Source: Patellaria atrata CBS 101060 (Eukaryota). Taken from it: a stretch of 64,000 nucleotides of DNA. The position numbers and the translations under genes were made by a program. This document shows positions 1 through 24,808 of this stretch, one piece after another; position 1 is the stretch's first letter; the number at the start of each line of letters is the position of its first letter. Location of the stretch: contig MU006096.1 of the NCBI GenBank assembly GCA_010093705.1, positions 1,262,004-1,326,003 on the forward strand. The letters are read 5' to 3'. The notes beneath the pieces are model-generated. The model was not told the origin of the DNA. It did no database searches and was given only the letters and a program-made list of their open reading frames with translations.

Positions 1-818
1 ACGACAAGCTCGCATAGCGTAGTCAATCTGAAGTTCACTAGGATTTCCCTAGGATTTGTTGTGGGGAAGAATGGTACGACTTCCTATGGGACAGATCCTG
101 CGAATCCCTGGGGCAAGATGCGCCATGCCTTTTGGCCGCGTTGCAAGGTGGAGGGTAGCATTATCACGCAAGCCGGAGACGTAGACATGACCGGGCGGGG
201 TTTCTTCGTTCATGCTCTGCAAGGCATGAAGCCACATCACGCAGGTAAGGATCTACTTATTATCGCATTGTCACTTCACCTCTGATTAGCTATCACTAGC
301 TGCTCGTTGGGATTTTGCGAATTTCCAGTCACCCAACTACTCCGCGTTCCAGATGTCTTTCACTACTCCACCCTCATACGGGTCGACCGTCGTCAATGTT
401 GGGGGTCTTGCAATCGATGACGAGATTGTATTTGCTGGGGCAAGAAATTCAGCAACGCACCTAAAAGTCAAGAGCGATGCGGACAACGATTGGCCTGAAC
501 CGACCGCAGCTAAATATGTCTGGGACGGGAAGACGAAAGATGGCAAGGACGTTCACCTCGAGCTTGCGGGCAACCTGGGCGAAAGAGTGGATCGGGTCGA
601 TGTCATGGCTGAAGTCCCTGGTTTCATCAAAGCCATCGTAGCAAGTGCTGCAGGTACCAAGCCCTACGTATATCAGGTATGTCAATTTAGAACACTTGAG
701 AGAACGGCATTAACCATCTTCACAGTTTGCTTCTAAGCTCACTCTATCTGTCAAAATTGGAGAAGAAGTGAAAGAAGAAGATGGTCTACTCTTCGCTGAG
801 GCTACCTTCATCTCTTAA
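1..818 (+). CDS. SVF1: Survival factor 1 (Svf1 family), 5'-partial; exons <1-244, 300-676, 726-818
   Basis: Open frame from base 1 (..[42 protein letters not shown]). GT-AG introns 245-299 and 677-725 join it to [39 protein letters not shown] and to ..FAEATFIS* (TAA 816-818). Motifs recognised as Svf1. Confidence 0.9.
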
Positions 819-1512: not shown

Positions 1513-2465
1513 ATGGCTAAATTGGCGGACCGCCAGTCTGTGGTTTCGCCGATGGGTCCGGGGATTGCGAGATACGGGCCCCGTGGCGCTGGGTTGGGGT
1601 CGGGGGGGAAGGGGAAGAAGGGGTTTAAACGGCATAGGTGAGTATATGATATATCTGGTTTGAGATGAATAAAGTTTTGATTGAGGGGGGAGATGTGGTG
1701 ATGGGGAGTGAGATGGGAATGTAGAAGCTGATCTGATGGATTCTAGGAAGATTCTGAGAGATACGATTGATGGCGTCACTCGTGGCAATATCAGGTGAGT
1801 CTACGTTGTGAAGGTTTGCATTTTTAGGTTTACTGATTGAGATGAATAGGCGTATGGCGAGGCGCGGTGGGGTTAAGCGTATCTCAGGAGCTATCTACTC
1901 TGATGTTCGCAGTGTGTTGAAAAGTCGTGAGTCGTTTCCTTGATATTGTAATTTTGGAACTGGATGTACTAACATTGAGGAGGTCTCGAGCTTGTATGAT
2001 ACACTAGGTCTGAACTGGGTATGGATGAGCTAAGTTGGAGTGTAGATTCTTAGGGACATCGTTACGGTTGTTGGTGAGTTGGATAAAAAAAACAATTGAA
2101 ACAGAAAAGCAGAATGTATTTCGAGCACCGGCTAATGATCGATGTTGCAGAACAGTACGGACGCCGAACCATCACTGTTGCGGATGTAAGTTACCTGTCC
2201 TTCCGCTTTGAAAGCGTGATATCTTTTACATATGCTAACTGGTTCTGCCAGGTTGTTTTTGCCCTTCGCCGTGTAAGTAACATGATCTGCAGTCTATTGG
2301 TCGATCCCCTAAGCTAATTCATTCCTCTACGAAAGCTTGGTCAAACCATATATGTGAGTTCGAATCGTGTGTATCCTTCGCTGCACTTGCTGATGATGGC
2401 AGGGTTTCGGAAATGCAACCACTGGTGCGGGTAACCGCTCCACTGAACGCCCACCGGGCCTCTGA
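1513..2465 (+). CDS. Divergent histone H4 variant (hH4v/H4E-like), 141 aa; exons 1513-1637, 1747-1794, 1850-1926, 1983-1993, 2046-2073, 2151-2185, 2252-2272, 2336-2353, 2403-2465
   Basis: Eight GT-AG introns give a 426-nt in-frame CDS: [141 protein letters not shown]. It aligns without gaps to canonical H4 residues 16-102. Possible additional 5'-UTR intron 1388-1459. Confidence 0.88.
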
Positions 2466-2867: not shown

Positions 2868-3975
2868 TTAAACCTTCCCCCCAACGTCCCCAACATACTC
2901 ATACCCCCTATACCCCTCATGCTCCAGCGCCCTACTAACCCCCATCCTCCCCCTTGACGTCCTAAGCGGGCCCCTCGTCGCATCCACCAGCGGCCTCATC
3001 CACCGCTTCTCCGTTCCGTCCGAGGTAGCGGACTTGGTCACGATCGGCACCCGACACCCGCCCAGCAGCGTCGGCGACGAGTTCGCGTAGATGGTCTCCC
3101 AGCGCTGCGCCGGCACGTGGTAGATCTCGTGCCAGATGCTGATGTGCGGGTGCGAGGCGATGGTGCGGTTCCACCAGTCCCAGCCGGCGCGGTGGGTCGG
3201 GCCGTGGGCGAATTTATGGAGGCCTCTGTTGGGGGGGGGTTGGTTTAGTGCGATGATGGGGGATGAGGGGTGAATGGGAATAAGGTACTTACTCGGCGTT
3301 CTTGAAATAACAGACTTGCAGGATCTCGTTGCCGGTGGGTCGCTCGTTCGCGGTCCATTCTGTTATTCCGAGCATGCCGTACGTGTCGAATTCGTGTTCG
3401 AGCTCTTTGCTCATCCTGTTGAAGTAGGTGCCGATTTCTTGGACGCCAGGCCCAATGATGCCGAGGGGGCTGGATGGGTGGAGTGTGAGGTTAGTGTTTG
3501 GGTGTGGGATAGGGGTTTTTCAGGCGTAGAGAAAAAAGAGGTTATGCTATACGTACTGGTTGATACGTGTTCCGATCAATAGGACACAGATCTCCTCTCT
3601 CGAAGCCTGGGCGCCGAAATCACCGTTCTCGTCGGGCAGTTGAGCGGAGAATTTGGTGAGGATTACGTCTTTCATCATGGGATTGGATTTCCATCCAGCG
3701 GCTTGGAGGAAGGCGTCAGCGGTTCGATAGAAGAGGAGGAAACCTGCTGGGAGGAATGCTAGGCGGCCGAAGAGGAGATAGGCCAGGCCTTGGAAACAAG
3801 CTCCCAGCGCAAGCCATGACGAGATCGTAAGTTGATCGCGAAAGGTGTTTAGGTCGTTCACGCTGAAATTGAAAGGAGGGAGCCAGCCAGACTTGGTCCT
3901 GAACGATTCCCAGCGTTGAGTGTTGTGACGTTTGTCCTGGGGTGCTGAGGCTTGGAGGGGTTTGAAGGCACTCAT
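2868..3975 (-). CDS. DUF4188 / Af470-like putative monooxygenase; exons 3975-3557, 3469-3293, 3225-2868
   Basis: Spliced product MSAFKP..RDQLTISSWLALGACFQ..EICVLLIGTRIN-HPLGIIGPGVQEIG..VCYFKNAE-GLHKFAHGPTHRAGWDWWN..HPHISIWHEIYHVPAQRWETIYANSSPTLLG; introns 3556-3470 and 3292-3226 are GT-AG. Confidence 0.8.
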
Positions 3976-5047
3976 GTCTATTTCACGATCAATGGATGTT
4001 ATACTTTGTGGGACATGAGACAAACTGGTGGTTATTATCTCAGTTGAATATGTGTTGAGAAGACCAGTGCGTGTATGAGCATGGTGGGACAAATCTAATA
4101 TATATCCTTCTACTGGCAATCTGGTTACATCTAGTCTTAGAATCCAAACTAAATCCTTTCTTTAAGGGCGTAAGGAATTGGCTGGCTTGGAAGTTGGAAA
4201 GTTATGTGCAGTGTAGTACATGATTTTGATTAGGCGCCCAACTTCATGCTTGGAGATCTGCTGTACTGTACAGCCTTCACAGCTCATACGGCCGAGTACA
4301 AGGTAGCTGGAGGGATTCGGGACCGCTTCCACAGCTTCCGTGCCTCGGTATTGCATCCATGTTACATTCAGAGATTTAGTCATTTGGATGAAACTTTTCA
4401 TAGTCTCAAATCCATCACTTCGCAAGTATATCCTAAAACAAGGTCGTGATCTCATCGCTTGAACAGAATCAAGAGATATCTATGAGGTGATTGATGTTAG
4501 AACTAGCTCGCTTTTGATCCTTAGTTCCTTCATAGTTCTGCTTCTAGCATTAATTTGTCCTAGGAGGACTTTTCTCCCAACAAATTTAGGAAATCCTCCA
4601 TAAGATGCTATAGAATCCTTTGGAGCTTCAACTGCACACGTTGATGTGAGTATGTAAACTATGGTTTCAATTTTATCCTACCAGACTCCTTCTTTCTAAG
4701 TATACTGTTAGAACACGAGAACAACTGACGGAAGGTATTCTCAATTGTACAAGTAGAACTATCGCTCTATTACCTGGAAAGGGAGCCACAACCTACAAGC
4801 GAACAATACCCCGTATAAAAGGATCTTTTTTCATAAAGTCTACTGGAGGAAATCCTGATTTTGAAGACTCTTTCTTAACGCTCTTATGAATCTCGTATAA
4901 AGTTCAAACAGTCATTCTTTATCTTCCAAAATACAACGACGGAAATTGATCATCAATATGATTTTCAGCAGATTTACTTCGCTTGCATATATCCCCAAAA
5001 TCAACCCAAAGAGAGGAAATGTCCGTCCACCGAAGTCTTTCAGCTAG

Positions 5048-5670: not shown

Positions 5671-6651
5671 CTGGAAGGATGCTCAACGTCTTGACTTCTC
5701 TGAATACTAAAAAGCACGTTAATTGAGTTGTTAAGGTAACAGCATCTATCTATACTCCTTCCTTCTAGGAGACTGTTTTAAGGATCGCATGCTCAGTGAA
5801 AATGCTGGTTGAAAGGGAAATAAATATCCATCATCCAATCATCAATCAATCGCATCGACAAAATCAACCAACTCTCCGCAGATATCTATCATCGATCGAC
5901 TCTAAAAAGAAAGGGCTAATAAATAAATAAATGCTAGAAGGATTTCAAAACCCAAATAAGATTGAAAAATAAAAACAGTTCCCCCCGCCGAAACGAAGGT
6001 ACTCTGTCTATATCGAACTTAGGTTGACAGTAAGGTAGCGGCACTACAGGTGGACGAGGCACTTGCTTACTCAGCTACATCCTCACCAGGTTCGATGAAA
6101 ATAAGATTGGTTGTTAGTGCCTATAACTTACAACTTTAGCTAGCACGTGGTTTCCGCGTTGGGTAGGTGCGCCCGATATCAGATGAGATATGTACCTCCC
6201 TTACGCAATTGATTTATTATAATGAACTAACTATATCTATCTATAGAACACGCCGACTACCTCGTTCAACCAATACCTCATGAAGTTCAAGACCACGGCA
6301 AATATCAAACAAGAATCAAAGCAATCCAGGAGAAGTTCAATGTTAATGATATATTTGTCTCAAACTAGATAGTGAAGCCCAGATATACATACACTTGTCA
6401 TAACAGTCGCTGAATAGCGGAACGCTTTTGGATAATTTTCATCAAGCGTGAATGAAGAGAAAGCATATTTTCAACAGATCATAATAAGAAGGAAACAGAT
6501 ATACAAATGATTCAGAAGAGATGGGGAACAAGCACTATGTCAAAACCAAACCAGGAGGCACAAACTATAATTAGGGATGGATATAAGGAAGAACACACAT
6601 GCGATCTAGAGGAAGTTATAAGACTTTAACTAATATAACCTAACAAAAACC

Positions 6652-7689
6652 ATGAACCATAATAACATCGCTCATGAGCCATATAGGGGTATCTTCCGAG
6701 ATTTCCAACAGGCTAAGAACGAAGCACCAATATTCCAACCGCGCTGGAAGCCCCCTCTTTCTCCCTTTGACGATACAACCTTTCCTTTTACCGCAGAGAG
6801 CTATAATAACTGTGTGAAACTCCTCTACAACGCAATGATCAACATCGAAAGGGTAGCCGAACACCCAGACGACAACGCACACAAACGCTGGACCAACCCC
6901 CGATTCTACGACAATAAAGACATCGAAGCCATGGCGCATGAACTGGTGAGTCTGACCATCCAGCTCCACAACACGGGCGCACAGGTTCCCGAACACATGG
7001 ACCGTACCAGCCCGACCTCCGCGTGCCGGTCCTGGGACTTCGGAACTAGACTCCAGAAGTTGGCGAAACTGCTGGAGCAGCGGAAACGGTCGTGCGAGGA
7101 GATTATGGCGAGGCAGAAACTGTGGAAGAATATCATCGACCCCGATGCCTGTGCGCAGACTGCGAGGTCGAATAAGAAGACCAATGCGGTCAAGGGGACG
7201 CAGCTGAAGTATTTCCGACAACTCGAGAGGGAAGGCCGGTTGCCGGGTGGTGCACCTATTCAGGTTTTGAGCCAAGGGCCTACTTTTGATGATCGGGAGA
7301 CACCTCGGAGTTTGGTTTCTGCACACGGGACGGATGTGTACCAGGTCGATATCTCCCATGACTTTGAACACCTTGCTCGGGGGCATTATCAGGTTCCTCA
7401 GCAGAAAATCGGGACAGTGAACGCACATAGTGTAGGTCAAGGATACGTTCTTCCTCCATCGGGCCAGAATCTACTCTTTAGTGAGAGATTCCGTGGAGCT
7501 CAAAGGCCGCTTCCATCCGATCAAACGGCCGTTCAGGATGGAACATTCTGGACTACGTTTCCAGATGTACATGGATCGATGCTGGCTGGCTCGAATTCAA
7601 CTATGTTAGAGGATGGTTCAGCTTTACTTGCGCCGGCTATGGGGAACTCTGATTTCAATGGATACCCCCAAACGTTCAAAGGATCCTAG
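6652..7689 (+). CDS. Hypothetical protein, 345 aa, single exon
   Basis: Long ATG-initiated ORF preceded by an A-rich context and a TATA-like TATAA; helical-looking core (..RLQKLAKLLEQRKRSCEEIM..IIDPDACAQTARSNKKTN..) and low-complexity C-terminus. No named family recognised. Confidence 0.7.
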   Translation: MNHNNIAHEPYRGIFRDFQQAKNEAPIFQPRWKPPLSPFDDTTFPFTAESYNNCVKLLYNAMINIERVAEHPDDNAHKRWTNPRFYDNKDIEAMAHELVSLTIQLHNTGAQVPEHMDRTSPTSACRSWDFGTRLQKLAKLLEQRKRSCEEIMARQKLWKNIIDPDACAQTARSNKKTNAVKGTQLKYFRQLEREGRLPGGAPIQVLSQGPTFDDRETPRSLVSAHGTDVYQVDISHDFEHLARGHYQVPQQKIGTVNAHSVGQGYVLPPSGQNLLFSERFRGAQRPLPSDQTAVQDGTFWTTFPDVHGSMLAGSNSTMLEDGSALLAPAMGNSDFNGYPQTFKGS

Positions 7690-8059
7690 AAGGATATGGT
7701 TATGATATTGAGAGAGTCTATCTATCGGAACTATAGGTCTTGAGTGTAGGAAAACTATAGTTAGGGAATATTGCCATGCTTATGAATGAAATAAATAGCA
7801 TTGAGGTCTGTGATTATTGTCACTGACATGTTTGTGGTCAGCTTTAGCGGAAAGAGGCGAGGGGCGGGGAGAAGTGCCAAGGAGGAGCATCTCCGCCCCA
7901 TGCTCACCTTATCGATAACCCACCTATCGTTACATCAGATTTCTAATCAGCGATGCCGCTCTCCCTTTCCTTTATGAATATTGAATTTACGCTTTGCTCG
8001 ATCTCCCATTGCACATATCCTTCGTGACGATAGTATTCCTGATCCACACACCCTCAAGA

Positions 8060-9141
8060 ATGTCTCCCTCTCTCGAAGAACCAACCCAAGTCGAGCTAAA
8101 CGCACCTCTCAAATCCGCACCCAAACTCGTCGCTCCCGAACCAGGTAACCTACCCCTCCCCTCCCCTATTTCCACTCCAAATGCCCCTAACATACACTCC
8201 CAGAACACTGTCCCGGCCCCGAATCTAACCAAGCTGGCAAATCCGACGCCTGCGCCGGCTGCCCCAACCAACAAATCTGCGCCACCGCACCCAAGGGTCC
8301 CGACCCAGACATCCCGCTCATAACCGCGCGTCTCTCAGGGGTAAAACACAAGATCCTCGTGCTCTCGGGAAAAGGCGGGGTGGGCAAATCGACGTTCTCG
8401 AGCATGCTCGCGCACGGGTTCGCCAGCTCGGGGGAGAAGATGGTCGGGCTCATGGACACGGACATCTGCGGGCCGAGCATACCCAAGATGATGGGCGTGG
8501 AGGAGGAGACGATCCATGTGTCAGCCGACGGGTGGAGTCCCGTGTGGGTGGCGGATAATCTGGGAGTGATGAGCGTGCAGTTCATGCTGCCGAATCGGGA
8601 CGATGCGGTTATCTGGCGTGGTCCGAAGAAGAATGGGTTGATTAAGACGTTTTTGAAGGATGTGGAGTGGGGTGAGCTGGACTTCTTGGTCGTGGATACG
8701 CCGCCTGGGACGTCGGATGAGCATCTTAGCGTCAATAGCTTTTTGAAGGAGGCAGGGGTTGATGGTGCGGTGTTGGTTACGACGCCGCAGGAGGTCAGCT
8801 TGCTGGATGTGCGGAAGGAGGTTGATTTTTGTAAGAAGGCGGGGATTAGGATACTGGGCGTTGTGGAAAATATGTCAGGCTTCGTGTGTCCGAAATGTAC
8901 GCACGAGAGTCAGATATTTAGGGCTACGACGGGCGGTGCGAGGAAGTTGGCGGATGAGTATGATGTTCCGTTTCTTGGAGCTGTGCCGCTGGATCCTAGG
9001 ATTGGCATGGCGTGTGATTATGGCGAGAGCTTTTTGGATAATTTTCCGGATAGTCCGGCGTGTAAGGCGTTAAAGGGGGTGGTGAGAAGAGTAGGTGAGG
9101 AGATAGGGTTGGGACGTCATGAGCTCTTGGGTGAGGACTGA
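8060..9141 (+). CDS. NBP35: Cytosolic Fe-S cluster assembly factor NBP35; exons 8060-8144, 8204-9141
   Basis: N-terminal Cys motif [26 protein letters not shown], deviant P-loop [31 protein letters not shown]; intron 8145-8203. Confidence 0.95.
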
Positions 9142-9710
9142 AGGATTGGTTTCTATGGCGAAACATTTCTGCATTTTCTTGGAGCGATGCATGGAATGGC
9201 GTTTGGGAACTTAAGAAAAATCGTTCCAATTACACATGTAACAGAGTTGGAGTGTGGGGCGCAAAGGGGTATTTAGGTTTATGATCTCTATATGAGTCCA
9301 TATAATGCAGAAGAATTTGACATCGTCTTCTATGTCCCAGCCTGCAATTTATGGCTCAATTAAAAGAAAAACCCCTAATCGGCGAATCTTCATATTGAGA
9401 TGCACTACTCTGCTGAGTACTCCTCTTAAACGTGGGTTCTCTCCATATCTGGACTATAGTTTCTTCTGAATAATCTTAGTGTCAAAAGAAATGACTAGAG
9501 AGTTTTTGGGAGAACAAGTTATCCGGAACGTATCCGCACCGTAATATGGCCACTACAGATTGTCATCTCAATTAGTTAGGATTTTGAAGATGTAAAGCAA
9601 ACAGATTCTGCTCTCGTGTTTTTTTAGAGCTTGACCTTGGAAATGTGCATACAAGTCTCAGCTATAACTTTGAACGGTCCGTATGATGAATGAGAATTGT
9701 GAGAAGTTTC

Positions 9711-10391
9711 TCATCCGGCAAAATGGGAGTCAACATGATGTGCGACGGCTGCTTCATCTCCTTGGAATGAGCACATGGGGCAAGTGACAGTATCTAAACC
9801 TTGGGTTTGAGCGACCGTGGGCTCCGGGTTACCACTTGCCGCTCTGGACTGGTCCTTATTCCTACGTTTTTTCTGTTTCGGAGCCTTGATGTACTCTACT
9901 AGGCTATGACTGGGCTCTGCAGGAGGATTGTAGGTGTGTTCCGATTCTCTAACATCCCCGTACTTCCAAACGGTCTCGTATCTCCTCGTAGGTAACTCTC
10001 GTTGAGTACTATGACCCAGGGCTTCTCCATTTCTTCCAAGAGAGTTAGCATCTCCCGAGCCATTCCTGGCCTCTTCCTCGCTCGCCATCCTCTGTACTCT
10101 GCCTACGCGGCCATCTTGCAATCGTACCTTTATACCTCTCGGATGGTTTCCGCTAGTGAGGACTTCAGCTATTGTTCCTTGGACCTGTCGTCCTGTTGGC
10201 TGGTCGACTTTGAGGACGATGGAGACGTGCGCGCCGGAGACGACTTGTTGGATTGTGGGTAGGATTTGAGGATAACCCGGACGGTTGAAGTAAGGTCTTC
10301 CTCCTCTTGGTGAGCCGCGATAGCCTCGATAACCCTGACCGCGTCCCCGAGTGAATGATACTGTCTCGTGGTTACGTCCAACATTCCTCAT
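9711..10391 (-). CDS. YwbE/DUF2196-family protein with RG-rich N-terminus and C-terminal zinc finger
   Basis: First ATG at 10391. Core VSIVLKVDQPTGRQVQGTIAEVLTSGNHPRGIKVRLQDGRVGRVQ matches the YwbE pattern; C-terminal CPMC..HVDSHF. Confidence 0.8.
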   Translation of the reverse strand: MRNVGRNHETVSFTRGRGQGYRGYRGSPRGGRPYFNRPGYPQILPTIQQVVSGAHVSIVLKVDQPTGRQVQGTIAEVLTSGNHPRGIKVRLQDGRVGRVQRMASEEEARNGSGDANSLGRNGEALGHSTQRELPTRRYETVWKYGDVRESEHTYNPPAEPSHSLVEYIKAPKQKKRRNKDQSRAASGNPEPTVAQTQGLDTVTCPMCSFQGDEAAVAHHVDSHFAG

Positions 10392-11214
10392 TGTGTCGGT
10401 CTTGCTATGGCTTGTATCCTCGAATTTTATGACAGTAAGAAGGGGGACTAAGTTAAAAGTAAGGTAATGACTCCTTAACCCCAAGGTAACTTTAAGGTAT
10501 TAAATCAGGGTCAAATCGTGTATGCCAAGGCCCTGTTTGTACTACAACAAACTCTCAATTAACCTCATTAAATCCTTAAATCTCAAAGTCAGCAGTTCTG
10601 AGGTCAAATGCCCTACTAACAAGAGTAAATGAAGCTATTACTTTTACTCTAATAGGTCCACGTCGAGGACTAGGGCTACAAGAGATATGAGGCACTGCAG
10701 GGGCATGCTGGGGTCACTTTGGTGGGCACTTTGGGGCGGGGATCTTTTACCGTGACAGATTCGAAAACATATAGTAAGTAGGGGATCGATCACTACTAAA
10801 ATCGCCATAGATACAAGGGCCAAGGAGGATCGAGTTGTCGACCAAAAAAATCTACAGATATGACTGAAGAGCGTTGAACTTCAATCCAATTCCCCTTTTA
10901 TATAAGAGCTGAGATTCAAAAGACAATCATGGCCCCCAAGTGTTGTTCAAGCAAGCCTGACTCTGGATGGCCGCGGAGGAGTTCAACTAGCCGTCAGTAA
11001 TACTACATGAGAGCAACGAAGAGCAAGGCTGAAGATGCCGCAGCCTCCTCATTGACCTCCCATCAGATACGCGGCTAGCTGCTCTCGCCTCCTCACTCTC
11101 TAGAAACTTGAATGTTTAATCTACAATAGCTATGCATAGCTACCTACGCCTTTTGTAATCTATCGATAGAGCACTCAATAGCTATGCCTTTCAGGCTCTC
11201 TCAGAGTTGTAGTG

Positions 11215-14200
11215 ATGTCTTCCACGCAGCCTGGTTACAGACAACCGTCTGAGCTTCTCGAACCTTTCTCTGAACAAACAGATACGAGCATAGAGCGGTC
11301 GTATGATGATGTTGATGTGCAACAGATTGCTACTCTCCTACAGCATATCAACCTCGCATGGAGCAGAGTCCCTCGAACATATATAGTCCTGCGCAAGATA
11401 AACCGCCTCGATACTCTTGCAGACCTCATCGCCTTTGGATTTACCGACTATAGCATACCAATTACTCCGAGATCTTTACCAAGACCCCTTGATATTACAC
11501 TACGAGGTGAGTTCGAGCGCGCCCAACCATGCGTATTAACGCAGTTGTTCAATCTGGAAAGGGGAGTCCATGGGTCACATGTACACTTCCCACCAGATGC
11601 TGCCATACCGCTTCTTCACCAAGGAACTCTTGGTACGGGAGGTTATGGGGTGGTCGATAAAGTCCAAAGTCTGATAAGCTACAAAACATACGCAAGGAAA
11701 CAAGTACCCCGGAAGTTCATTATAGCACCAAAGGGAAAAAAAGCTCTGCAATTGTTGGAAAACGAAACCGAAGTCATCAAGGGTTTAAACCATCACCATA
11801 TTGTCAGTTTCATCGACAGCTACACTGACTCTGATTTCTTTGCCCTTATCATGTCTCCTGTGGGGAGATGGATTTAGCGGCTTATATGGAGATGGATGAT
11901 ACCAAGCTTCCTACTAAGAAAGCAACAATACGGACATTCTTCGGTTGCCTTGCAAAAGGTCTGGAATATCTTCACATGTGTGGCGTTCGCCATAAGGATA
12001 TTAAACCTCGCAATATTCTTGTCCACGAATCTCGCATTTTGTTGACAGATTTTGGACTCTCGAGGGTCGCAGGCGAGACTGGAAACAATACAACAAGTGG
12101 ACCCACCATTATGACCCGTCGCTATTGTGCACCAGAAGTTGGACAATATACCAGTAGGAACCTATCAAGTGATATTTGGTCTCTCGGTTGTGTCTACCTA
12201 GAACTATTAGGACAACTGGTCGGCTGGGAGTCAAAGTTCATTGAATCATTTCTGCAAAGCAATGGGAACCACGAAACCGCCTTTTGGGCAAACAATTCTG
12301 CCACAGAACAGATCATTGAAAACCTAGATAAGTGCTGCTCGTCATTGGATAAAGAGTCTCTGGAATGCACGAGAGCAATGCTCAGTACGAGGGCTAAAGA
12401 TCGACCGGACATATATCAAACTGTCAATATGATTACTGGAATCAACACAGCAGCTGGTGGACTATCTCCATTCATCGGTATATGTTGTGTAGCACGCATT
12501 AACTTGTCCGAATCTGTCGAGATGGCTCAGCTACGACTTCTTGAGCAGACACCAATAGACACGCCCCTAAGTCCTAACGAACAGTCATATATTCTACAAG
12601 AATCAAGTACAAAATCTTCAAGGACCAACATTACCCCTGATTCACAGCATAATTCTCCTCAAGTACCACGAACCCGGCAACATAAAAGTGGTAGCAATTT
12701 AACATCGAGCAGACTCGAAGTGAGTCGTAATGCCGTCCCTTGGCTTCATAAAAGGGATATCGATAACCGTCGTGCTTAGGACGAAGTAGAGAAAAGCAAG
12801 GGTCTCTTCCTTGGTGTCGCCTATGCTCATTTCTCTGTCGTTGAGTATTCCTTATATGAAGGAGCGGACATCAACTACAAGACTACTTTGAAATATTATT
12901 CCACCGAAGACGAGAAAGTCTCCGTTGATCTAACCGGTACTGCAATACTCCTAGCTGACATTAATGGACATTCATCCATGGTTTAATTTCTCCTAGAACA
13001 TGGTGCTGATATAAGTAAGGATGCAAATATCCTCTTCTACGCAGCTTCGACTGGCAAAGAAATTTTTAGTCTGCTTATAGCACCTAATGGTGCTAATATC
13101 GATTATGTGGATACCACCGGCCGAGGACTCTTACACCATACCATCATCAACGGTAATTCAAATATGATCGGCATCCTACTTGATCATGTTGGTCCAGGAA
13201 TCAACCTTCGAGATTCTAATGGTGACACGCGTTTACATTATGCTGCAAGGGCAGGGCAAACAGACATAGCCGCAGGATTGGTGATGAGTCCGAGCATCGA
13301 CCCTGATATGATGAATTCGAATTATGCGACTCCCTTGTTGTTTGCTTGCTCTGGGGGCTACGTGGACATAGTCCGCCTATTACTTGCAAGAGATGATGTG
13401 GATGCTCTTTCAGTATGTGGTCCTGATAAAGACGAAACTCCGATATCTGCAGCGATTTATGGCGGTCACACAGTTGTCGTGGATGCACTAATTAAACATC
13501 ACTTAACAATCGGTACGAAAATCTTCTCCGTGCACCTGGGTTTCCTGAGGATATTCTTGAAAGCAGTCTCTCAATGCTCATCCAAGGCTGTCATTGAGCT
13601 TCTGTTAGAGCAAGGGTTAATCACTGCAAATTTAAACTTACGTGAGTTCGAAAACGACCTCTCAAGTTCTGAAGGATTGGTAGATTATTGGACATTGTTC
13701 TCGAACGCTTTATCCAAAAATTTCAAAGACGTTGTCGACCTTTTACTTCAGCAGCAAAATCGTCCATAACTTACTTGGGGCAAGTCTGGAAACATTATCA
13801 AGATCATTGACATGGGACTCTTCGCTAGGATCACTGAAATGGACCTTCGCCAAACCTCGTACAATGAACAAGGAATGTCGTGGGTGAAAATACTGGTCAA
13901 TATACTCATCGTAAGGAATTGGCACTATATCTCAGCTTAAGGCGTTACTCAATCACGAAGGGTTTCACCAGTCTTCTCTCAAATTCCCTGGCCGGCTGCT
14001 AGACGTTTCCTTCACCCTAGGAAACGCGGTCCTTGTGCATTTGCTCCTTCAAATGCATTTTGAAGAAGTCGATTTGCTCTATTCTAAATATAAGAATGAC
14101 CAATTGCTAACATGGTTTACAGAAGTCAATTCGCTGTTGTTAGTACTCAAGGATATTCCAACTGCAACACAATTTACCGAGCTCGTCTTTATAAAATACA

Positions 14201-15528
14201 GGAATAGTCTATCACCAGAAATCCTAGGTAGCATTGCGGGTATTACGAGAGTTAAGCTGGATGGAGCAACTGAAGATGTAACACCATTGTCAATTTTGAA
14301 ACTCGCAGTTGCTCGTCAATTTACCCCTCTAGCTCGACTGGCCTTCTCGCGGTTTTGGGATAATATCGCTTCTCGAACTGAGATGATATGCTTTTTGATT
14401 CTCTGTCTTGACTCTGGCCGAGACAGATTCTGCAAGTCCTTACTCCGTACAGTGCACTTTTCGACGCAAGACTATGATACGCGACAAATTCTCTACAAAG
14501 TATTCGCCAGGGGAAACGCGCAAAGTATAAACTCTCTAATCGATTGTATAGATACCGATTTCTGTAATCTAAGGCCCGAAAGGCCGCCATTTCGCAACGT
14601 CATAGGCATCCTAAGTTCTAGGGGCTTGAGTGAAGGTGTACTCAAAGTCGTACAAATGGATGGCGTCGATCTCAACCTTGCATTTAGTTGTATCCGAATG
14701 ATGGATAGTTCAGTTACTCTTTTGAATTTCTTTATAAGACATAAAACCTTTGATGTCAACAGCCTTGACTCTACACAAACATCTATGCTAGAATACGCCG
14801 TATTCAAAGACAATGTCCAGCTTGCGCAGAGCCTGTTGTCTAGGCCAGAGATCAATGTAAATACCGTCCTGGGATATAACGAAACTCCACTTTCTATTGC
14901 GGTGTCTGGTGGTTTCGGCGATATGATCAAGATTCTACTCTCAAGAGAAGATTTGGAAATTGATGCACACGATAGACGACGTAGCTTGTTGAAGTTAGCA
15001 ATAGACGCAGACCGTGCTGACATCGTGGAATCACTGATTCGTCGCCAAGACCTGGATATCAACAGAAATATTTCAGGATTTCCTGTGCTCCTATACGCTA
15101 TACAAGCACGGCGACCATTGGACGAGCAGCGGGAGATCGTATCTACCCTCTTGTCCAGGCGGGATCCAGACGTTAATAGACTCCGAAAGTACAGAGGAAA
15201 TACTCCAGAACATGTGCTCTGCACTGCAATTCGGCGTGGCGGATCTGACAGGATCCTTCGTCTACTTCTCGAAAGATCCGACATAGACGTTAACTTTTAG
15301 GATGCAGATGGGCGTACCGCTCTCTGGCACGCTGCATTTGTCGGAAATTGTGCTTGTGTCAAGGCTCTCCTCCGTTCAACACACCGTGTTCAAACCAATA
15401 TAGCAGGATCTTTCGAGAATACATACGAGACCCCTTTGAGTATTGCGCGAAAGATGGACCACCGTAATGTAGTAAAGCTCTTGAAAATCCTGACCGAACC
15501 CCGGAAGCTCACCTATTTGGCGATATAG
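11215..15528 (+). pseudogene. Disrupted Ser/Thr protein kinase plus ankyrin-repeat gene
   Basis: Kinase motifs LGTGGYGVV, YARK, HKDIKPRN, DFG, YCAPE, DIWSLGC followed by many ankyrin repeats (GDTRLHYAARAG, TPLLFACSGG, ETPLSIAVSGG, GRTALWHAAFVG). Broken by frameshifts near 11865 and 13915 and in-frame stops TAG 12777, TAA 12984, TAA 13767, TAG 15298. Confidence 0.85.
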
Positions 15529-16980
15529 ATGATTCAAATACACTAAGTCTAAATCGGAATTACCAACTATCAGCGGAGATAGCTGAGGATGAAAGGAGCC
15601 GCTGAAGTCCTCCTCTCCCCGAGTTGACGAGCAAACCTTCACGGCCAAGAGAACATTCTGAACGTTTGAGGATAATGGAGTATCCTGTTCACAGTAAAAC
15701 TACGGTAGAAAGTCCACACTCGAGAAAGCGTCTTGCCAATCGGAGATCGGAAACGGAACGCTCGCGCTCAAAAGACCGTTCTACTTTATTTCGCCCATTC
15801 TCAAGCCTCTACGCTCATAGACGTAGAACAATCGCAGGGAATAGCTTTATAAGTCAGGGCAGCTCTACGGCAAGCGATAGAGGCGAATGAGGATGTCGCT
15901 GGGTGTGGGAACGGTCGACCTTTTGAACAAGCAAACACAGCGCCGCTACGCTCAGAGAACAATCGATCATTCTCTAACGGTCGCAGTTTAATCTTATCGG
16001 TTATAGTAGACTTCCTGTCGGTTATCGTAGAATTGCCGTGCGAGTACTGGTGTTCCATCAAGTTCGGCGCCGTATGAGATTTCACCTTCCCTTCTAAGAC
16101 TTCTAAGTCAAGAGATCACTTGCTCTTGAACTAATAGAGGAGAATATTTATCCTTTACTATACTGCTACTACCTACGTATGGATAAAAAATGCTTCAGTA
16201 ATCCTCCTCACATGACTTCTTAAAGACTAAATGCATCTAGTGTTTCCTGACCGAAATTAGGTTGACCTCACCTTATCTACAAAAAGGGATAGAACTACAG
16301 ATGACTTCACGTAGTAGACAATCTGATATCTGGGCTGAAAGACCGAGATTTCCCCCTCACAATAGCGGCAAGAGGGGGGATTATATATATCATTGTTGAG
16401 TGTTGATATAAAAAGATGGTAGAGGAATTAAAGGGGATTTTAAGCGAGAAGGTGCGGAATATCCGTTTCATCGTGGCGCTTCCTCCTCGTGATAGGCCCA
16501 GAGTGTTTCTGATTTTACCTTGGCACATATTCAGCCTCGTGCATGTTTTGAACAACTTTACTCAGAGCAGATCGAGTACCCAAGCATTTTACAATCTTCA
16601 AGGATTATGATGATCATCCGGAAATTTGGGAGGTTATGTAGTCCTGAATATGAAAGAGCGGGAAGAAACGTGCGTCGTGTTGACGCCAACATCTGTACTG
16701 TACCGCCCTGCAATATCACTACTCGCAGGTCATGTAATGTTTATAAACAGAGAATATTGACCCACAATAGACTATCCCTACTTTTCCTAACCTTCTGCTC
16801 CTGCTCTTCTCGTTGATCTAAGATTCTTTTCTTTCCTACCGCTGTCATTCATTCAGCCCTAGCGGCCTCTACATTCACTTTGACATTGATACCTTAGCAA
16901 TTGTTATCTTAAGGGACTGTGTCTCAAACTTATATCATCGTCACTCTTAAATACATTTCTACACGTCTAAATCCCTGAAC

Positions 16981-18440
16981 ATGGACTTCCTAAAGAAGAG
17001 TACTGCTCTATGGGCTCTCGCCACAGTTCCGATTATCCACGCTCACACGCTTTTCACCAACTTTTTCGTCGATGGAGTTGGTCAAGTATGTGCCCATCCC
17101 GATTATCACACCCAATCCTAATCACCTAAACCAGGGCAATGGCACCTGTATCCGCATGAACGACAATCCCTCCCAAGCCAGCTTCCCTATCCCCAACATC
17201 GAAAGCAACGACATGGCCTGCGGTACTCCCCTCCCCTTCTTTTCCAATTCTCCCACATACTTACCCTTCGAGGCATCCACGGCATGCACGGCGTCTCCCG
17301 CGTCTGCCCCATCCCCGCTGGCTCCCTCCTAACCTTTGAATTCCGCTCCTGGGCCGCCGACCGCACGAAACCGCGCCTCGACTCCTCCCACAAGGGCCCC
17401 TGCGCCGTCTACATGAAAAAAGTCTCCTCCGCGGTCTCCGACACCGCGACCGGCGCCGGCTGGTTCAAGATCTGGGATCAGGGCTTCGACGCCGCGAGCG
17501 GGAAATGGTGCACGGAGACCCTCATCGCGAACGGCGGATTACTGTCCGTCAACATCCCCCAAGGGGTGCAGAGAGGTTATTATCTGCTGAGACCGGAGTT
17601 GCTGGCCCTGCATAATGCGGGGAATCGCGACCCGCAGTTTTACGTCGGCTGTGCGCAGGTGTTTGTGGAGGGTGGTGGGGATATGGTGCCTGTGGATATG
17701 GTCAGCATACCGGGATATGTGACGTACGGCGAGCCGGCCGTCGCGTTCAATATCTGGAAGCAACCCATGGACCTGCCCTACCCGATTCCGGGGCCGCGGG
17801 TCGCGAGGTTCGAGCACGCCGGTGCCGTCGCGAACACGGTCCAGGACGAGGGGCTCCGGCCTGACGGCTGTATCATGGAGAACGGGAATTGGTGCGGGTT
17901 CGAGGTCGACGATTATAGCGATGAAGCGGGATGTTGGGCCGTATGTCTTCCCACCTACATCAAATCCGACATCGCGAGACTGATCTTATGTAGGCGGGCG
18001 AACAGTGCTGGGACCAGAACCAGGACTGCTGGGATTCCGCGCCCCCAACCGGCGGGCGCGGCTGTGAGCTCTGGGCCCAGAAGTGCAAGGCGCTGAATGC
18101 GGCGTGCAAGGCGCGGAATTTCAACGGGCCGCCGAATAGGGGGAGGTATTTGACGCCCGAGAGGGAGACGATCGCGCCGCCGGTGCCGAGGGCGACGGGT
18201 GGAGGGAGTGAGGTGTTTCCGTCTGAAAGATCGGGTCTGGCTTCGGTCTCGGTTTCACGGGGGTATCAAGGTCCTGATCCCGTGGCTACCGCTGGACCTA
18301 CTTCTGCGGGATATACTCACGAGATCTCGGAGCTTGCGCCTGAGGCGACGAGGGCGCCGGTTAGGGTTGTGACGGTGTATGAGACGGATGTTGAGACGGA
18401 CTGGGTGACCGTTACGGTTCGGAGGGGCCTGCGTGCTTGA
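16981..18440 (+). CDS. AA9 (GH61) lytic polysaccharide monooxygenase with Cys-rich C-terminal module; exons 16981-17085, 17135-17222, 17273-17940, 17994-18440
   Basis: Signal peptide ending IIHA followed by His1 (HTLFTNFFVDG); SSHKGP, LLRPELLALHNA and PQFYVGCAQ motifs; three GT-AG introns keep the frame. Confidence 0.9.
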
Positions 18441-18697
18441 AAAGAAAGCAGAGCAAAGGACATGGGTAGGAGTGATTAAAAGCGGAATGTTCTCATTTTT
18501 CGAGGGGCTGAGGTTGAACCTTCCTTGGATATTGATGTGCAAGCGACTTTAATTGAAGATGTAAATATTCGATTCTTTTTACATTTACATGGAGTGACAA
18601 CCGAACTACATAGACGCCCTCTACACCTTTGGTTCGGGTATCGTTACATTCATGCGCGTCACACTCGATATTCCGGGCACAGCTCGCCAGGGGATTT

Positions 18698-20948
18698 CTA
18701 ACACCGTTCGAAAACCCTGTACAGCCCCTTCAAATCAGCCACCTCCACGACCCCTTTCAGTAAACCCTTGGTAGCAACCAGTCTGGCCTTCAAGGCGGGA
18801 AATATAACGTTCTCCAAAGCCCGCAAAACGTGCTTCCGTCGCGCCGCTAACTCTCCGTGCTCTTCAGCGTCTTCCTCACCTTGCATTTGCCCAAGGACGG
18901 ATTCAGGTGGAAGCGGTTCGGGGACATAAAACGCGGCTAGCTCGACGAGGAAGGTGTGAAAGCATTCCTTCTCGCTCGACCAATTCACCTTCGGGCCCAA
19001 CCTCAGCAGAAACTGTGGGAGTTTAGCAAGAGAAGGCGTATACCCCTTCATCATCAACGGAATACTAAGCAGCTCCCCTTCCTCTGAGATTTCCAGCGCA
19101 AAGTATTCCTCCAACATGTTCCGTCTGCCCATAAGCTGATCCCTCACCAACGTCACGACCTCATCCCAATCGAGAGCATCCTCGCCAGTCACAGCCTTCT
19201 CCTGCTCCGCGGCTACGGTTAATAGTTCGGTGAGATTCAGCACCGGGTTGAACCTGATGCTGCCGAAATTGCCAAAATCGGTGAGCCCGAGCTGGTAGAA
19301 GTACTCGTTGCACAGCATGCCGTAGTCGACAAGGTACAGCTTGACGCCGCCCTGGATCGCGGCGATGCGCTTGCGGGCGTCGACGATGCCGACGAAGGTG
19401 TGGCTGGCGAAGACGTCGGTGAGGGCGGAGTGCATTTCATCGCGCACGGCGGCGCGGAGTTCTCTGATCGTGGTGAGGCGGCAGGATACGTGTTCTTTGT
19501 CGGAGTACTCGTATTCGATGTCTTTGAGGGGTTGGGACTCTTCGCCATTGGCTTCGTTGGAGGGACGAGTGGTGGGTGGGAGCATGGAGGTGATTTTTCG
19601 AACCCGGGAATCGGTTCGCACCAAGGCGTTTTCGTACGGTCTTTGGGAGTTTGATTTCTGGGTTGTGGATTTTTGAGTGGTTCTGGGGTCTCTTTGTGGA
19701 GTCGAGGGCTGCGAGTCTTTGGAGGGAGTCAAAGGTATTGTTGGTATACTGACACCGGGGAGTAGGCTTTGCGTTAGGAATGTCCGGCTTGTATCTACTT
19801 TGGTTAAGCCCCCACGTATCTCGTCACAGATAGTCTCGATGATCTCGTCTTCATTCAAGAAGTTAACTTCCCTCTTTGTAGGATGGACATTGACATCCAC
19901 ACGTTGGGGGTCAATCTCTAAACTCAGGTATATAAAAGGATGGCCACCTTTGGGGAGGAATATCGTGTAGATTTGTTCGAATGCTTTCTTGATAGCCGAC
20001 GACTCCACCGAACGATGATTGATAAACAGGAGAAGAGTAGTTCTCTTCACGCTATAATTTGCGTTACTCACCCAACCCGAAGCAGTGAAGCCCCAACGGT
20101 CACTTGAAACCTTGACCTCAACCAGTTCATTTGCAACGGAACTTCCATGAATTTGACGGATTCTATCGATAGTAGAGGCATTAACTGGTACGAAGATCCC
20201 CATTGACGAGTCTCCCTGTTTCTTGCAGGAAAATGCAACTCCTTCGCAATGGACAGCGTATCGGCCGACCATATCCAATATCTTAGCATATTCTTCGCTA
20301 CCAGATCGGAATGCACGTCTTCGAGTAGGTATGTTATAAAAGAGATCCTCAACCGTGATTCGAGTGCCTATTTGGCCTGCCGCTGGTTTCGGATCCGCAC
20401 TCTGGCCAGGTTTGGCCGGTACCAGCTTGCCATCCGCATATTGAGCTTTGTATGCACAACTTGACTCCTTGGTCCTAGTTATGATACTCAAGTGAGCAAT
20501 ATGGCTGATGCTGGCAAGAGCTTCGCCCCTGAAGCCATACGTAGCGATAGAAGTTAGATCTTCGAACGCTTTCAACTTAGATGTTGTGAAACGCTCGCAG
20601 AGAATCGGAAGGTCATCTCGCTGCAATTTCAACATTAGTGCTCTCTTATTTCCTCATTCATGGTGTCCTAGCTCTTACGTTGATCCCATGTCCATTATCA
20701 CTGATCTGCAGAAGCTTTAGCCCGCCGTCTTTCGCAATGATTTCAAGAGATGTAGATCCAGCATCCACGGAATTTTCCAAAAGCTCTTTGAGAGCATGAA
20801 CAGGTGCAACTATTATCTCTCCCGCTGCAATCTTGTTCACCACATCTTGGGACAGAGCTCTTATTCGCCCAAGAGCATCAGTCTGGGTTGGTGTCTTCTT
20901 AATCTTTGAGGAATCCGGTGATGGATTCAACTCCATTTCGTTCCCCAT
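18698..20948 (-). CDS. MLH1: DNA mismatch repair protein MLH1; exons 20948-20679, 20620-18698
   Basis: [49 protein letters not shown] and the C-terminal YRVFERC signature; intron 20678-20621. Confidence 0.97.
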
Positions 20949-21030
20949 TATTGGTTTAGTATACCATCAGTAAAGGGCTATTGATATCGATCACTGTCGA
21001 AGTGCAACCTCGGGAAAATCTCGACGTTGA

Positions 21031-21091
21031 ACGCGTCCTCGCGTTGGGAAACTTTCATCTCCACCCGCACTCACGTGCTGATAAGCTTATC
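21031..21091. promoter_or_regulatory. Compact bidirectional promoter elements between MLH1 and the radical SAM gene
   Basis: ACGCGT 21031-21036 and TCGCGT 21039-21044 (MCB-like), CACGTG 21072-21077, palindromic GATAAGCTTATC 21080-21091, all within about 170 bp between divergent start codons. Confidence 0.45.
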
Positions 21092-21120
21092 GCTCTGCAT
21101 GATGTCAACCTTCCAATTCA

Positions 21121-22386
21121 ATGTCAACCTCAACTTCTCTCTGGATAACCTCCAAAGAACCGCGCAATGCCACAATTACGATGCGCAGACTCCCGCTTGT
21201 ACTTGCGAAAAGATCAACCTCAAGGAGATCTCCCACACATTACCCCCTGAATTCGCCGTACTCCCGTCGCAACCTAAGACTCGCTCCACCTTTCCTCCTA
21301 GATGATTATACACCTCGGTATCAACTTCTCTCATCAGTTGATGCCGCGAAGAAGCGCTCTTTATCCTATGCGCATCTGCGGAACTGTAATCTATGCCCAC
21401 GACTATGCGGTGTAAACCGATATGAGAAGACGGGTGTCTGTCTCATCGGGGCAGAGACTGTAAAGGTCAACACAATTGCCCCGCATTTTGGAGAAGGTTA
21501 GTACAAAGACTACGGCAGGAGTCCAATTTCGAAGAATGAGAAGTAACATGATGTGTTCTCAGAACCATGCATCCAAGGCCACAATGGCAGCGGCGCTGTC
21601 TTCTTCTCCGGCTGCAACCTGCGCTGCGTTTTCTGCCAAAATCATGACATTGCACACCAGCGCAATGGCTTCGATCTCACGCCCGAGCAACTAGCAGAAT
21701 GGTTCATTAAGCTTCAAGAAGTCGGTATGGTTCATAATATCAATCTCGTTACGCCGGAACATGTGGTACCGCAGTGTGCATTGGCGATATTGCATGCAAG
21801 AGACTTGGGGCTTAAAATACCAATCATATACAACACATCTAGTTTTGATAGCTTGGAGAGCATCAAGCTGATGGACGGGCTAGTAGATATCTATTTGCCG
21901 GATTTTAAAGTTTGGAGGGATAGCACGTCGAAGAGGCTTTTGAAAGCTGATAGGTATGCGGAGATTGCGATGGAGAGTATCAAGGCTATGCATGACCAGG
22001 TCGGTGATGCTTGTTTCACACCTGATGGCATCATCAGAAAGGGCGTGTTAGTCAGGCATCTTGTGATGCCAGGAAAGGAAAATGAAGGTCAGGAGATTGT
22101 TAAGTGGCTTGCTGAGAATGTGTCAAAGGACATTATGGTGCATATCATGGAGCAATACTTCCCGAGAGCTCATGTGGGAAAGAAGGCAAGTAGGTCAAGA
22201 AATGTAGATACCGTGGTTGATCCTGGCGGCGTTGAAGCGTCGAAAAAAGAAAAAGAAAAGGTCAAGTATGAAGATATCAACCGCGCGGTAACAATGGGTG
22301 AGGTTTCATCTGTCCGGGAAGCTGCCGCAAAAGCTGGATTGTGGAGGTTTGTAGAGGCTGCTGAACATGGTGGCTTTAACATTTGA
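21121..22386 (+). CDS. Radical SAM protein, PflX-like (pyruvate formate-lyase activating enzyme-like); exons 21121-21496, 21563-22386
   Basis: CNLCPRLCGVNR..GVC, HFGEEPCIQG, CxxxCxxC motif GCNLRCVFCQN, NINLVTPEH, VDIYLPDFK, VRHLVMPG; intron 21497-21562. The start could be ATG 21121 or 21181. Confidence 0.88.
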
Positions 22387-22694
22387 GGCTGTTGGTTACT
22401 CTTTCAGGGACCTTCCTATCGTAAGGGTAAATTCAATCCAATAACATGGTTTCTTCCCCGCAATAGATATATTGCAAAATGCTCACTTTTTGATCTCATA
22501 GTAGAGGAAGCTTCAATAACATGGGTACCTGTACGGCGACCGGGCACTGTCTGAATTTTTGTTGTCCACAAATAGTCAAACGACCTCGTAACAATCACAT
22601 CGTAGATCGAGACTTTTCCAACCAATAACTCCGCGTTCGTAGCAGTGATTCCGTCCAAACAAACCGAATCATCTTCACATCTCTTTTCACGGCC

Positions 22695-23745
22695 TTACAC
22701 ATCAGTCATCGTCTCATCGCGGATGATTCCAGCAGGAATTCTGCCCTCGTTTAACTCCTTTTCAAGCCTGGCTATCTCATCCAAGCTCTTCGCATTCTTG
22801 ATCCGTTCCTGTACTCGCTTCTTCTCCTCATCTGTAAGTTGCACGCGATATGACTTGCCGGAGGAAATGCCGTTCTCGGACGGGACGTCGAATGTGCGGG
22901 ACTTGATGCCCATGATCTAAAACCGTCAATACAAACAGCTTCGGAGATGGAAAATAGCAACCTTTGCGGCTAGTGAAGTGGGAGCATCTTTTGTCCCAAA
23001 TAGCTCCTTCGCTTTTTTCTTCTCAGAATCTTTCACCTTCTGAAAGTCTAGGAATCGTACGGAAGGGCATCTCCATAGGACCCAGTATCTATAGTTCTAA
23101 TCTTCTTTAATATAGCAACTCATCATTTTCCTTCCGAGAGATACATTTTACATACCTCTCGCGCCGTGACCGGGTTTTCGAGCAGCACCAGGTGTGTGAG
23201 CTTGGGGAATCCAGCAAGTACATCAAGATCGGCAAGTTCGGATAACTGATTGTGCTGCAACACAAGTGTGGCCAGGTTCGGTATTGACTGCTTAAGCGAG
23301 GGATGTATGCTCGCAATGCGGTTGCGGGCGAGGAGAAGAGTCTGGAGACGGGGACTGAGGGGGAAGTTGGTGAGGACGCTAATGTCATTGTCGGTGAGAT
23401 CTATGCTATCCTGGGCCTGAATCGCGAGTTTGTCGATCAGTATCTCGGACATCCACTATATTGGAAACGTAAGGTAAGACATACACCAGCAACACCTAGA
23501 TTCTCGATAGCGGTGATCTTGTGTCCTGTAGTGGGGCAAAGTTTGATATCAATTGAGCTCTTTCATCAAAGTGTAGTATCTGTTCTTCTTAGGCGTACCT
23601 CGGAGATCTAACTGACGTTCGTGAAGTGGATCAATATAGCTACGCGACGCAGGTGATTAGTAGATGTTATAGAATCAGGCATAAGCTGAAGGTGGGCTGC
23701 ATGGTACCTCAAGGAGCTTTGGATGAGCTCCGGTGTGAGTCTCAT
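22695..23745 (-). CDS. LEA1: U2 snRNP protein A' (LRR); exons 23745-23708, 23639-23599, 23525-23485, 23416-23156, 23096-22962, 22916-22695
   Basis: MRLTPELIQSSL-SYIDPLHERQLDLRG-HKITAIENLGVAG-AQDSIDLTDNDI..LLENPV..-NYRYWVLWRCPSVRFLDFQKVK..IKNAKSLDEIARLEKELNEG; five GT-AG introns. Confidence 0.93.
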
Positions 23746-24091
23746 TGTGGAATTTGAATATCCTTTCAAAGAGTAAGACGGATGTTGGTATAATTCGGCT
23801 CGATATCGGCCCTATTCGAGTTCAGGATAGCACTCAGTAGTGGATGTGAGGCTAGTGGAGTTGGTGATGGGAGTTTAGGTTCGCTTGATGGGGTATCAAA
23901 TTTCGCCAAGACGGCCAAATTCTGATGTTTTGAAAAGGAGGGACCACGCGACCCAACTTTTTTAAAAAAAATTCCTCCCCTAAGGTACCTCCCCCCTGGC
24001 TCCTACCACCGCAACCACCAGAAGCTACACCCGCTTCACCGTCTCCACGTATCTGAATATCCTCAACCTCGGGAATAAACAGGGTAAGATC

Positions 24092-24808
24092 ATGCAGGGT
24101 GGGCCATTCTACGCTGTGCATGCTCGGGTCTGTGAGTATCTGTTTGTCAAGCCACAGCGATCCGAGTTTAAGGTTAACTTAACCCACAGAATGTCTCGCA
24201 TGTCACGCATATCCCAACCCCTTTTCGTAGGTTTCTATCCGAGCCACGAGGTGGAAGAGCTCGTTGTCGACAACGACCCTCTTCGGATGGACCTACCTCA
24301 ACATCAATTACGTGCATATCGTGTCTACCAGCCTTACCCGCTACATGGGACAAATGGGCTGCCAAATGCTTATTTCTCCTTGCGCAGGGCTATAAATTGT
24401 AATCCAAACGTTATTGGCTTATGCACCCCTTCCGGATCTCCCCTTTTCCGTCGCTCATTTCCACACTTAGTTGAACGACCCTCTATTTGTAACCTGCCTG
24501 CTAGGCTGATTGTACAGATGAGCACTATACTGGGGTTGCGTATGACTTCCCATAGCGTTCATTTGCAATTTGTAGAAAACCCTCTTTTATCCGAAAAGGG
24601 CATGTTTCGGGTGAATACCGTTCGAAAGCATGTTCATTACTTATCATTGAATGTGGAGTTATTTCGTTCCCTATTAGATGGCTTTCTTTGTGCCCTCATC
24701 TGTACCTGTTCAATACATTCGAGCAGGAAGATTTTTGTCAAAGATAAACGGTCTTGCCCTTTTGAAACTGTAAACAGCGGCATAGACAAGAAAATATTTG
24801 GTATATGA
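24092..24808 (+). CDS. Orphan 238-codon ORF, coding status uncertain
   Basis: ATG-initiated stop-free ORF divergent from LEA1; no recognisable motif; contains an intron-like GTGAGT...TTAAC...CAG segment. Confidence 0.2.
   Translation: MQGGPFYAVHARVCEYLFVKPQRSEFKVNLTHRMSRMSRISQPLFVGFYPSHEVEELVVDNDPLRMDLPQHQLRAYRVYQPYPLHGTNGLPNAYFSLRRAINCNPNVIGLCTPSGSPLFRRSFPHLVERPSICNLPARLIVQMSTILGLRMTSHSVHLQFVENPLLSEKGMFRVNTVRKHVHYLSLNVELFRSLLDGFLCALICTCSIHSSRKIFVKDKRSCPFETVNSGIDKKIFGI

Follow-up and report, generated by a model that had tools for sequence, protein, structure and literature searches.

The locus considered here lies on the plus strand at positions 1513-2465 of a 64-kb stretch of Patellaria atrata DNA (the window, by which we mean the whole of the sequence analysed), and it raises the question of what a histone H4-like sequence that is highly divergent and broken up into nine small exons might be: a real gene or a decaying copy, a new kind of histone or a member of a family already described, a specialised variant or simply the H4 of this fungus. 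Answering it depends on the integrity of the gene model, the resemblance of the predicted protein to canonical H4 and to its closest relatives, the intron pattern, and the genomic neighbourhood.

Gene model and splice signals

Rebuilding the gene from the raw sequence gave nine joined exons with a frame of 426 nt, encoding 141 amino acids plus the stop codon and containing no internal stop; the nine-exon model with eight GT-AG introns and a 141-aa product put forward in the initial annotation is thus borne out by its coordinates. Exon 1 (1513-1637, 125 nt) carries the start codon, the divergent N-terminal tail and the KRH(R) basic patch, the ATG at 1513 being the first in frame after a stop codon at 1498-1500. 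It is separated by intron 1 (109 nt, phase 2) from exon 2 (1747-1794, 48 nt), which in turn is separated by intron 2 (55 nt, phase 2) from exon 3 (1850-1926, 77 nt). Intron 3 (56 nt, phase 1) leads to exon 4, a micro-exon of only 11 nt (1983-1993) with which the gap-free register to H4 is preserved, and intron 4 (52 nt, phase 0) leads to exon 5 (2046-2073, 28 nt). Intron 5 (77 nt, phase 1) interrupts codon 97, corresponding to H4 position 74, and is followed by exon 6 (2151-2185, 35 nt). The last three introns, of 66, 63 and 49 nt, are all phase 0 and set apart exon 7 (2252-2272, 21 nt), exon 8 (2336-2353, 18 nt) and exon 9 (2403-2465, 63 nt including the stop codon), the latter encoding the end of the H4 fold together with a C-terminal extension of 16 residues. 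All of these exons and introns are on the plus strand.

The splice signals are regular. All eight introns, with lengths of 49-109 nt, start with GT and end with AG, and the 5' sites read GTGAGT in five cases, GTAAGT in two and GTATGA in one. A branch-point-like YTRAY motif, with its A positioned 9-18 nt before the 3' site, was present in seven of the eight introns; in intron 4 no YTRAY was found by pattern, and only a CTAAG could be seen by eye. The G+C content of the introns ranges from 0.36 to 0.51, against 0.55 in the coding sequence. Retention would shift the frame for six of the eight introns, and for five of these six a stop codon would follow within 1-9 codons; with intron 8 retained a further 27 codons would be read before a stop at codon 148 of 158. 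Intron 7 (63 nt) would keep the frame if retained but would introduce a stop, while intron 6 (66 nt) stays open and would be read through in frame. As far as can be judged from its sequence, the locus is a real and intact nine-exon gene, the splicing of which is predicted.

Some further details of the splice sites should be mentioned. An alternative in-frame micro-exon of 11 nt at 2008-2018 was considered and rejected, as it would be followed by an intron of 27 nt (2019-2045) and gives a poorer fit at H4 positions 62-64. This segment is situated within intron 4 and is followed by GTATGG, so that it resembles the real micro-exon with its donor, of which it may be a small duplication; its use in splicing is unlikely because of the shortness of the intron that would follow. 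Intron 3 ends in a tandem GAG-GAG acceptor (1977-1982), and splicing at the first AG would lengthen the protein by one residue. At 18-19 nt into the last exon, where an extra 3' intron has been published for some classes, there is no GT.

Similarity to canonical H4 and to the H4E/H4v family

The predicted protein was aligned to the first 103 residues of a canonical-type H4 (P0010) as reference. Residues 16-102 of H4 could be placed in a gap-free register, as had been claimed, with 53 of the 87 positions identical and 34 different. The protein is longer than canonical H4 at both ends, with 22 extra residues at the N-terminus and 16 residues beyond position 102, again in agreement with the longer N-tail and C-terminal extension reported at the outset. 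The lysines K16, K20, K44 and K59 are retained, and the changes K31R, F61R, Y72V, H75Q, K77G, K79R, Y88F and K91R are present, so that all four kept lysines and all eight substitutions listed in the initial annotation can be found in the alignment. In addition, the protein differs from canonical H4 in having G32 and L93 (Q93L), and K5 and K8 are lost. Overall it contains 8 lysines and 21 arginines compared to 11 and 14 in canonical H4, with which it shares the histone fold, the KRHRK basic patch, a 10-residue segment and the YGFG end; it differs from canonical H4 at F61, Y72 and Q93, in having longer tails and in its intron pattern.

Searches with parts of the protein gave a consistent picture. 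The read-through of exon 3 alone matched histone H4 chains in the PDB with an E value of 4.4e-8 and the joined protein matched its best relative, P0077, with an E value of 1.2e-42, which together put the likeness to H4 beyond chance. Pfam searches with exon 1 and with the exon-3 read-through, pieces that are too short for this purpose, returned no family at E 0.01. A word-index protein search found no protein identical to exon 1, which is weak evidence that the gene is hidden, as the initial annotation had called it; a search of this kind with the exon-3 read-through gave no match either, and this is again weak evidence.

Positions 72, 75, 88 and 91 belong to what we take to be the part of H4 that faces H2B in nucleosome structures. 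The changes at 72 and 88 are common to most of the variant relatives described below, while positions 75 and 91 vary among them. The suggestion that the protein forms unstable nucleosomes, or contacts H2A-H2B in an altered way, is speculative.

Relatives were collected by searching the 30-residue stretch of exon 3 against a library of 1.84 billion proteins, which gave 95 matches at E <= 0.001, and by then comparing these matches locally with the joined protein. The best match, P0077, is a protein of 139 aa with 64% identity over 102 residues. By their source names P0077 comes from Lineolata rhizophorae, P0052 from Thelotrema lepadinum and P0037 from Monosporascus, all of which are Pezizomycotina. 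In a maximum-likelihood tree of 28 rows, from which P0006 and P0093 were left out as chimeric or truncated and which was composed without the AN12228 protein of Aspergillus nidulans and the NCU04338 protein of Neurospora crassa, the P. atrata protein formed a clade with P0077, P0047 and P0058 with a support of 96/92. A profile built from six variant relatives returned mostly canonical or doubled H4s, with nothing useful among the 120 matches listed (7919 of 8000 candidates scored).

The substitutions follow a pattern that is shared with these relatives. At positions where canonical H4 is near-invariant the P. atrata protein has G32, R61, V72 and L93, and among the variant relatives R61 is found in seven of eight, a leucine, methionine or isoleucine at position 93 in seven of seven, a valine, leucine or isoleucine at position 72 in five of five, and G32 in four of five; L66 (seven of seven) and D53 (seven of eight) are likewise characteristic. 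It should be noted that the variant relatives were selected for the residues they carry and on the strength of three organism names, so that this grouping is partly circular. As a control we used 80 loci kept from a metagenome scan with P0058, all of which are intronless and of canonical type; these have P32 in 80 of 80, F61 in 80 of 80, Y72 in 79 of 80 and Q93 in 76 of 78. Conservation of the fold and of the residues typical of the family extends to relatives from three classes, and variability within the family is greatest in the tails.

The closest described proteins are H4E of A. nidulans, encoded by hheA (AN12228; GenBank MW026189), and H4v of N. crassa (NCU04338), which are one and the same variant and occur in most Pezizomycotina (Flipphi et al., 2024; PMC10878826). 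According to the same paper the H4E gene is built differently from canonical H4 genes: intron i1 (phase 2) comes first, i2 (phase 1) separates exons of 29-32 and 16 nt, i3 (phase 2) precedes an exon of 88 nt, and four phase-0 introns, i4 to i7, bound exons of 63, 18 and 21 nt. The modelled introns of P. atrata have the phases 2, 2, 1, 0, 1, 0, 0 and 0, and the exons between the positions of the published introns add up to 48, 88, 63, 21 and 18 nt. Intron 1 thus matches i1, intron 2 matches i3, intron 4 matches i4, and introns 6, 7 and 8 match i5, i6 and i7, respectively, whereas i2 is missing, exon 2 being equal to the published exons 2 and 3 (32 + 16 nt) without the intervening intron. The two phase-1 introns, 3 and 5, are extra with respect to the published structure: intron 3 splits the 88-nt exon into 77 nt and the 11-nt micro-exon, and intron 5 splits the 63-nt exon into 28 and 35 nt. 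A figure legend of Flipphi et al. (2024) gives 60, 18 and 21 nt for the exons that measure 63, 21 and 18 nt here, while the text of that paper gives 63 nt.

Set against the published description of A. nidulans H4E, on which this comparison is based, the P. atrata gene shares the H4 fold, longer and divergent tails, fewer lysines and an intron-rich gene, with i1 and i3 in phase 2, four phase-0 introns, exons of 63, 21 and 18 nt and the location between svf1 and nudA. It differs in lacking a five-residue insertion, the Eurotiomycete-specific intron (a 45/18 split) and i2, in having the extra introns which produce the micro-exon and the 28/35 split, and in having kept K16. Compared to N. crassa H4v, as described in the available text of a recent preprint (10.64898/2026.08.11.744009), the identity to canonical H4 is around 61-62% and gap-free in both proteins, the N-terminal extension is of 22 residues in P. 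atrata against 25 in N. crassa, and the C-terminal extension is of 16 residues against a unique part of 35 residues. The H4V of trypanosomes, the H4G of hominids and the H4.V of rice are also H4 paralogues with specialised roles, in unrelated lineages.

Eight of the nine variant relatives are mis-predicted in public collections, with retained introns, skipped exons and false starts, and P0077 alone looks whole; the database model of A. nidulans H4E is likewise reported to be mis-predicted (Flipphi et al., 2024). In seven of the nine (P0023, P0058, P0026, P0213, P0083, P0052 and P0047) a head, tail, insert or deletion falls at, or within a few residues of, an intron modelled in P. atrata. In P0052 precisely the 16 residues encoded by exon 2 are missing. 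In P0026, P0213 and P0083 the break comes after the last codon of exon 4. The first residue of P0047 corresponds to the codon interrupted by intron 1, and that of P0058 to the next codon; P0058 and P0023 both read V-S beyond the final tyrosine of exon 8, in the way that a read-through GT donor would. P0037 lacks 21 residues, which is the length of exons 5 and 6 together (63 nt); the gap set by the aligner lies two residues off the boundaries, and the exact fit to them is a re-reading by eye only. P0023 carries an insert of 23 residues which the aligner placed three residues beyond the codon of intron 5 and which, when read by eye, is located at that codon and begins as a read-through GTGAGT would. 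P0077 shows no break at the modelled intron positions.

The intron of the 28/35 split appears to be common to at least one other fungus, the exact place of the insert having been set by eye, and this intron is therefore not private to the P. atrata genome. We regard it as rather doubtful that the two phase-1 introns, those of the 77/11 and 28/35 splits, are both gains of the P. atrata lineage that go beyond the introns described in the available text of Flipphi et al. (2024).

The svf1-nudA neighbourhood and the identity of the gene

In Eurotiomycetes and Dothideomycetes hheA is located between svf1 and nudA (Flipphi et al., 2024; PMC10878826). Directly upstream of the P. atrata gene and on the same strand lies the 3' part of an svf1 orthologue (290-736, plus strand), identified by a match to Svf1_C (PF17187, E 1.6e-52). 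The dynein heavy chain gene that is the nudA orthologue was found on the plus strand at 35839-48246, as an open frame of 4135 codons the first 1054 residues of which match DHC_N1 with an E value of 6.9e-133; it is situated around 33 kb downstream of the H4 variant gene with about a dozen genes in between. The gene is thus at the published syntenic place, although nudA is not adjacent to it.

The immediate downstream neighbour is convergent and encodes an af470-like monooxygenase domain in a frame on the minus strand (2868-3362; PF13826, E 2.9e-19). A second frame on that strand (3547-4161) matched no Pfam family and was taken to be part of the same af470-like gene (2868-4161). Further on, the region 6634-24808 holds genes for a NUBPL/ParA-type P-loop NTPase, a DUF2196 protein, a protein kinase, ankyrin-repeat proteins, an AA9 lytic polysaccharide monooxygenase, Mlh1 and a radical SAM protein, which makes the svf1-nudA interval much wider than a three-gene block. 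Towards the end of the window there are two runs of N, at 53831-53930 (100 nt) and 55580-56479 (900 nt), presumably assembly gaps; the long open reading frames across 55485-56694 were dismissed as artefacts of these N runs.

Upstream of the gene two ACGCGT hexamers, 30 nt apart, are found at 1309-1344, which is 170-205 nt before the ATG, and these are possible promoter elements. In yeasts ACGCGT serves as the MluI cell-cycle box, and the pair might be a hint of G1/S control of the H4 variant gene. The hexamer occurs eight times in the window against 8.2 occurrences expected by chance, two of the eight being those at 1309-1344. Two CACGTG motifs are present further upstream (1100-1105 and 1290-1295).

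Because of the intact frame, the intron phases and exon sizes, the synteny, the clade in the tree and the shared residues, we consider the locus to be, with high probability, the P. atrata orthologue of hheA (H4E) and h4v (H4v). The interpretation given in the initial annotation, that the protein is a divergent H4 variant akin to hH4v/H4E, is accordingly supported by gene structure, synteny, tree clade and signature residues alike, and the gene adds another member to a family already described, with no claim to being a novel type of histone.

Proposed function, alternatives and significance

The description of this family as functionally uncharacterised, with which the analysis had started, is outdated, given that the preprint (10.64898/2026.08.11.744009) reports deposition of Neurospora H4v by SAD-6/ATRX. 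In that work H4v is 62% identical to H4 with no gaps, is found in MNase-resistant nucleosomes and associates in a complex with H3 and ASF1; deposition of H4v, which serves silencing, strictly requires the ATRX orthologue SAD-6. The P. atrata gene is predicted to encode a replacement-type H4 that retains the histone fold and the basic patch and has family-specific changes in helices 2 and 3. If it works as in Neurospora and Aspergillus, this protein would pair with H3, the H3-H4v dimer would be held by the chaperone ASF1, and the ATRX orthologue SAD-6 would put the variant into nucleosomes at perturbed or repetitive chromatin. Once deposited it would be needed for local H3K9me3 and small-RNA silencing, and it would be no substitute for canonical H4 in growth. 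We lean slightly towards this model of H3/ASF1/SAD-6-dependent silencing for the P. atrata gene, and hold it with less confidence than the identity of the gene because the C-terminal extension is shorter and because the model derives from one preprint on one species.

The alternative to be taken most seriously accepts that the gene is a true H4E/H4v orthologue and holds that its role is other than SAD-6/ATRX-dependent silencing, the protein being either a condition-specific nucleosome component or one with little function. This would fit A. nidulans, in which neither deletion nor overexpression of hheA had a phenotype and expression of hheA went up under nitrogen starvation at 37 C, while the protein was nuclear, interacted with H3 and was unable to replace H4.1 (Flipphi et al., 2024; PMC10878826). 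The shorter C-terminal extension relative to the unique part of the Neurospora protein points in the same direction, as does the variability of the tails throughout the family. A shared role is, on the other hand, what the conservation of the fold and of the family residues across three classes would fit, and the preprint describes H4v as broadly conserved and tied to a conserved remodeler. A role of this other sort is a real possibility for P. atrata, though clearly a lesser one than the silencing model.

Two further explanations concern the status of the locus itself. A silent or decaying copy, the frame of which is intact by chance or through recent origin, could draw on the fact that intron 6 stays in frame if retained; yet the locus has consensus 5' sites and AG 3' sites at all eight introns, a branch-point motif in seven of them and a full-length frame without a stop, its substitutions follow the pattern of the family and are not random, and it sits at a conserved syntenic place, so that a pseudogene is very improbable. 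Even less probable, to the point of being hardly credible, is that this is the main or only H4 of P. atrata and merely a very divergent one. There is no second H4-like sequence in the 64-kb window, in which tblastn of the joined protein found its own locus only below E 1, which speaks for such an explanation; the window is, however, a small share of a fungal genome. Canonical H4 is near-invariant, as seen from the P32 and F61 common to all of the metagenome control loci, and fungi with H4E are reported to have two canonical H4 genes as well, which H4E cannot replace (Flipphi et al., 2024; preprint 10.64898/2026.08.11.744009). We thus retain the reading of the locus as an intact H4E/H4v orthologue, for which the Neurospora silencing model is the slightly favoured function.

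As to what the finding contributes, the family has already been described in print together with the structure and synteny of its gene and, by now, a function, and one more H4E/H4v orthologue placed at the conserved svf1-nudA neighbourhood adds little that is new. The pair of extra phase-1 introns, including the 11-nt micro-exon, is possibly the sole new detail; if these introns are truly undocumented, they would offer a compact example of ongoing intron gain in a histone of retrogene origin. Skipping of the micro-exon, or use of the tandem GAG-GAG acceptor, could yield regulated unproductive isoforms or isoforms with one additional residue. Reading of the raw sequence recovered a nine-exon gene with a micro-exon of 11 nt in a family that is often mis-predicted. 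While no new question is opened by it, correctly modelled orthologues of this kind are useful for comparing which residues and tails matter, because the preprint (10.64898/2026.08.11.744009) ties the family to ATRX-type genome defence in fungi without H3.3.
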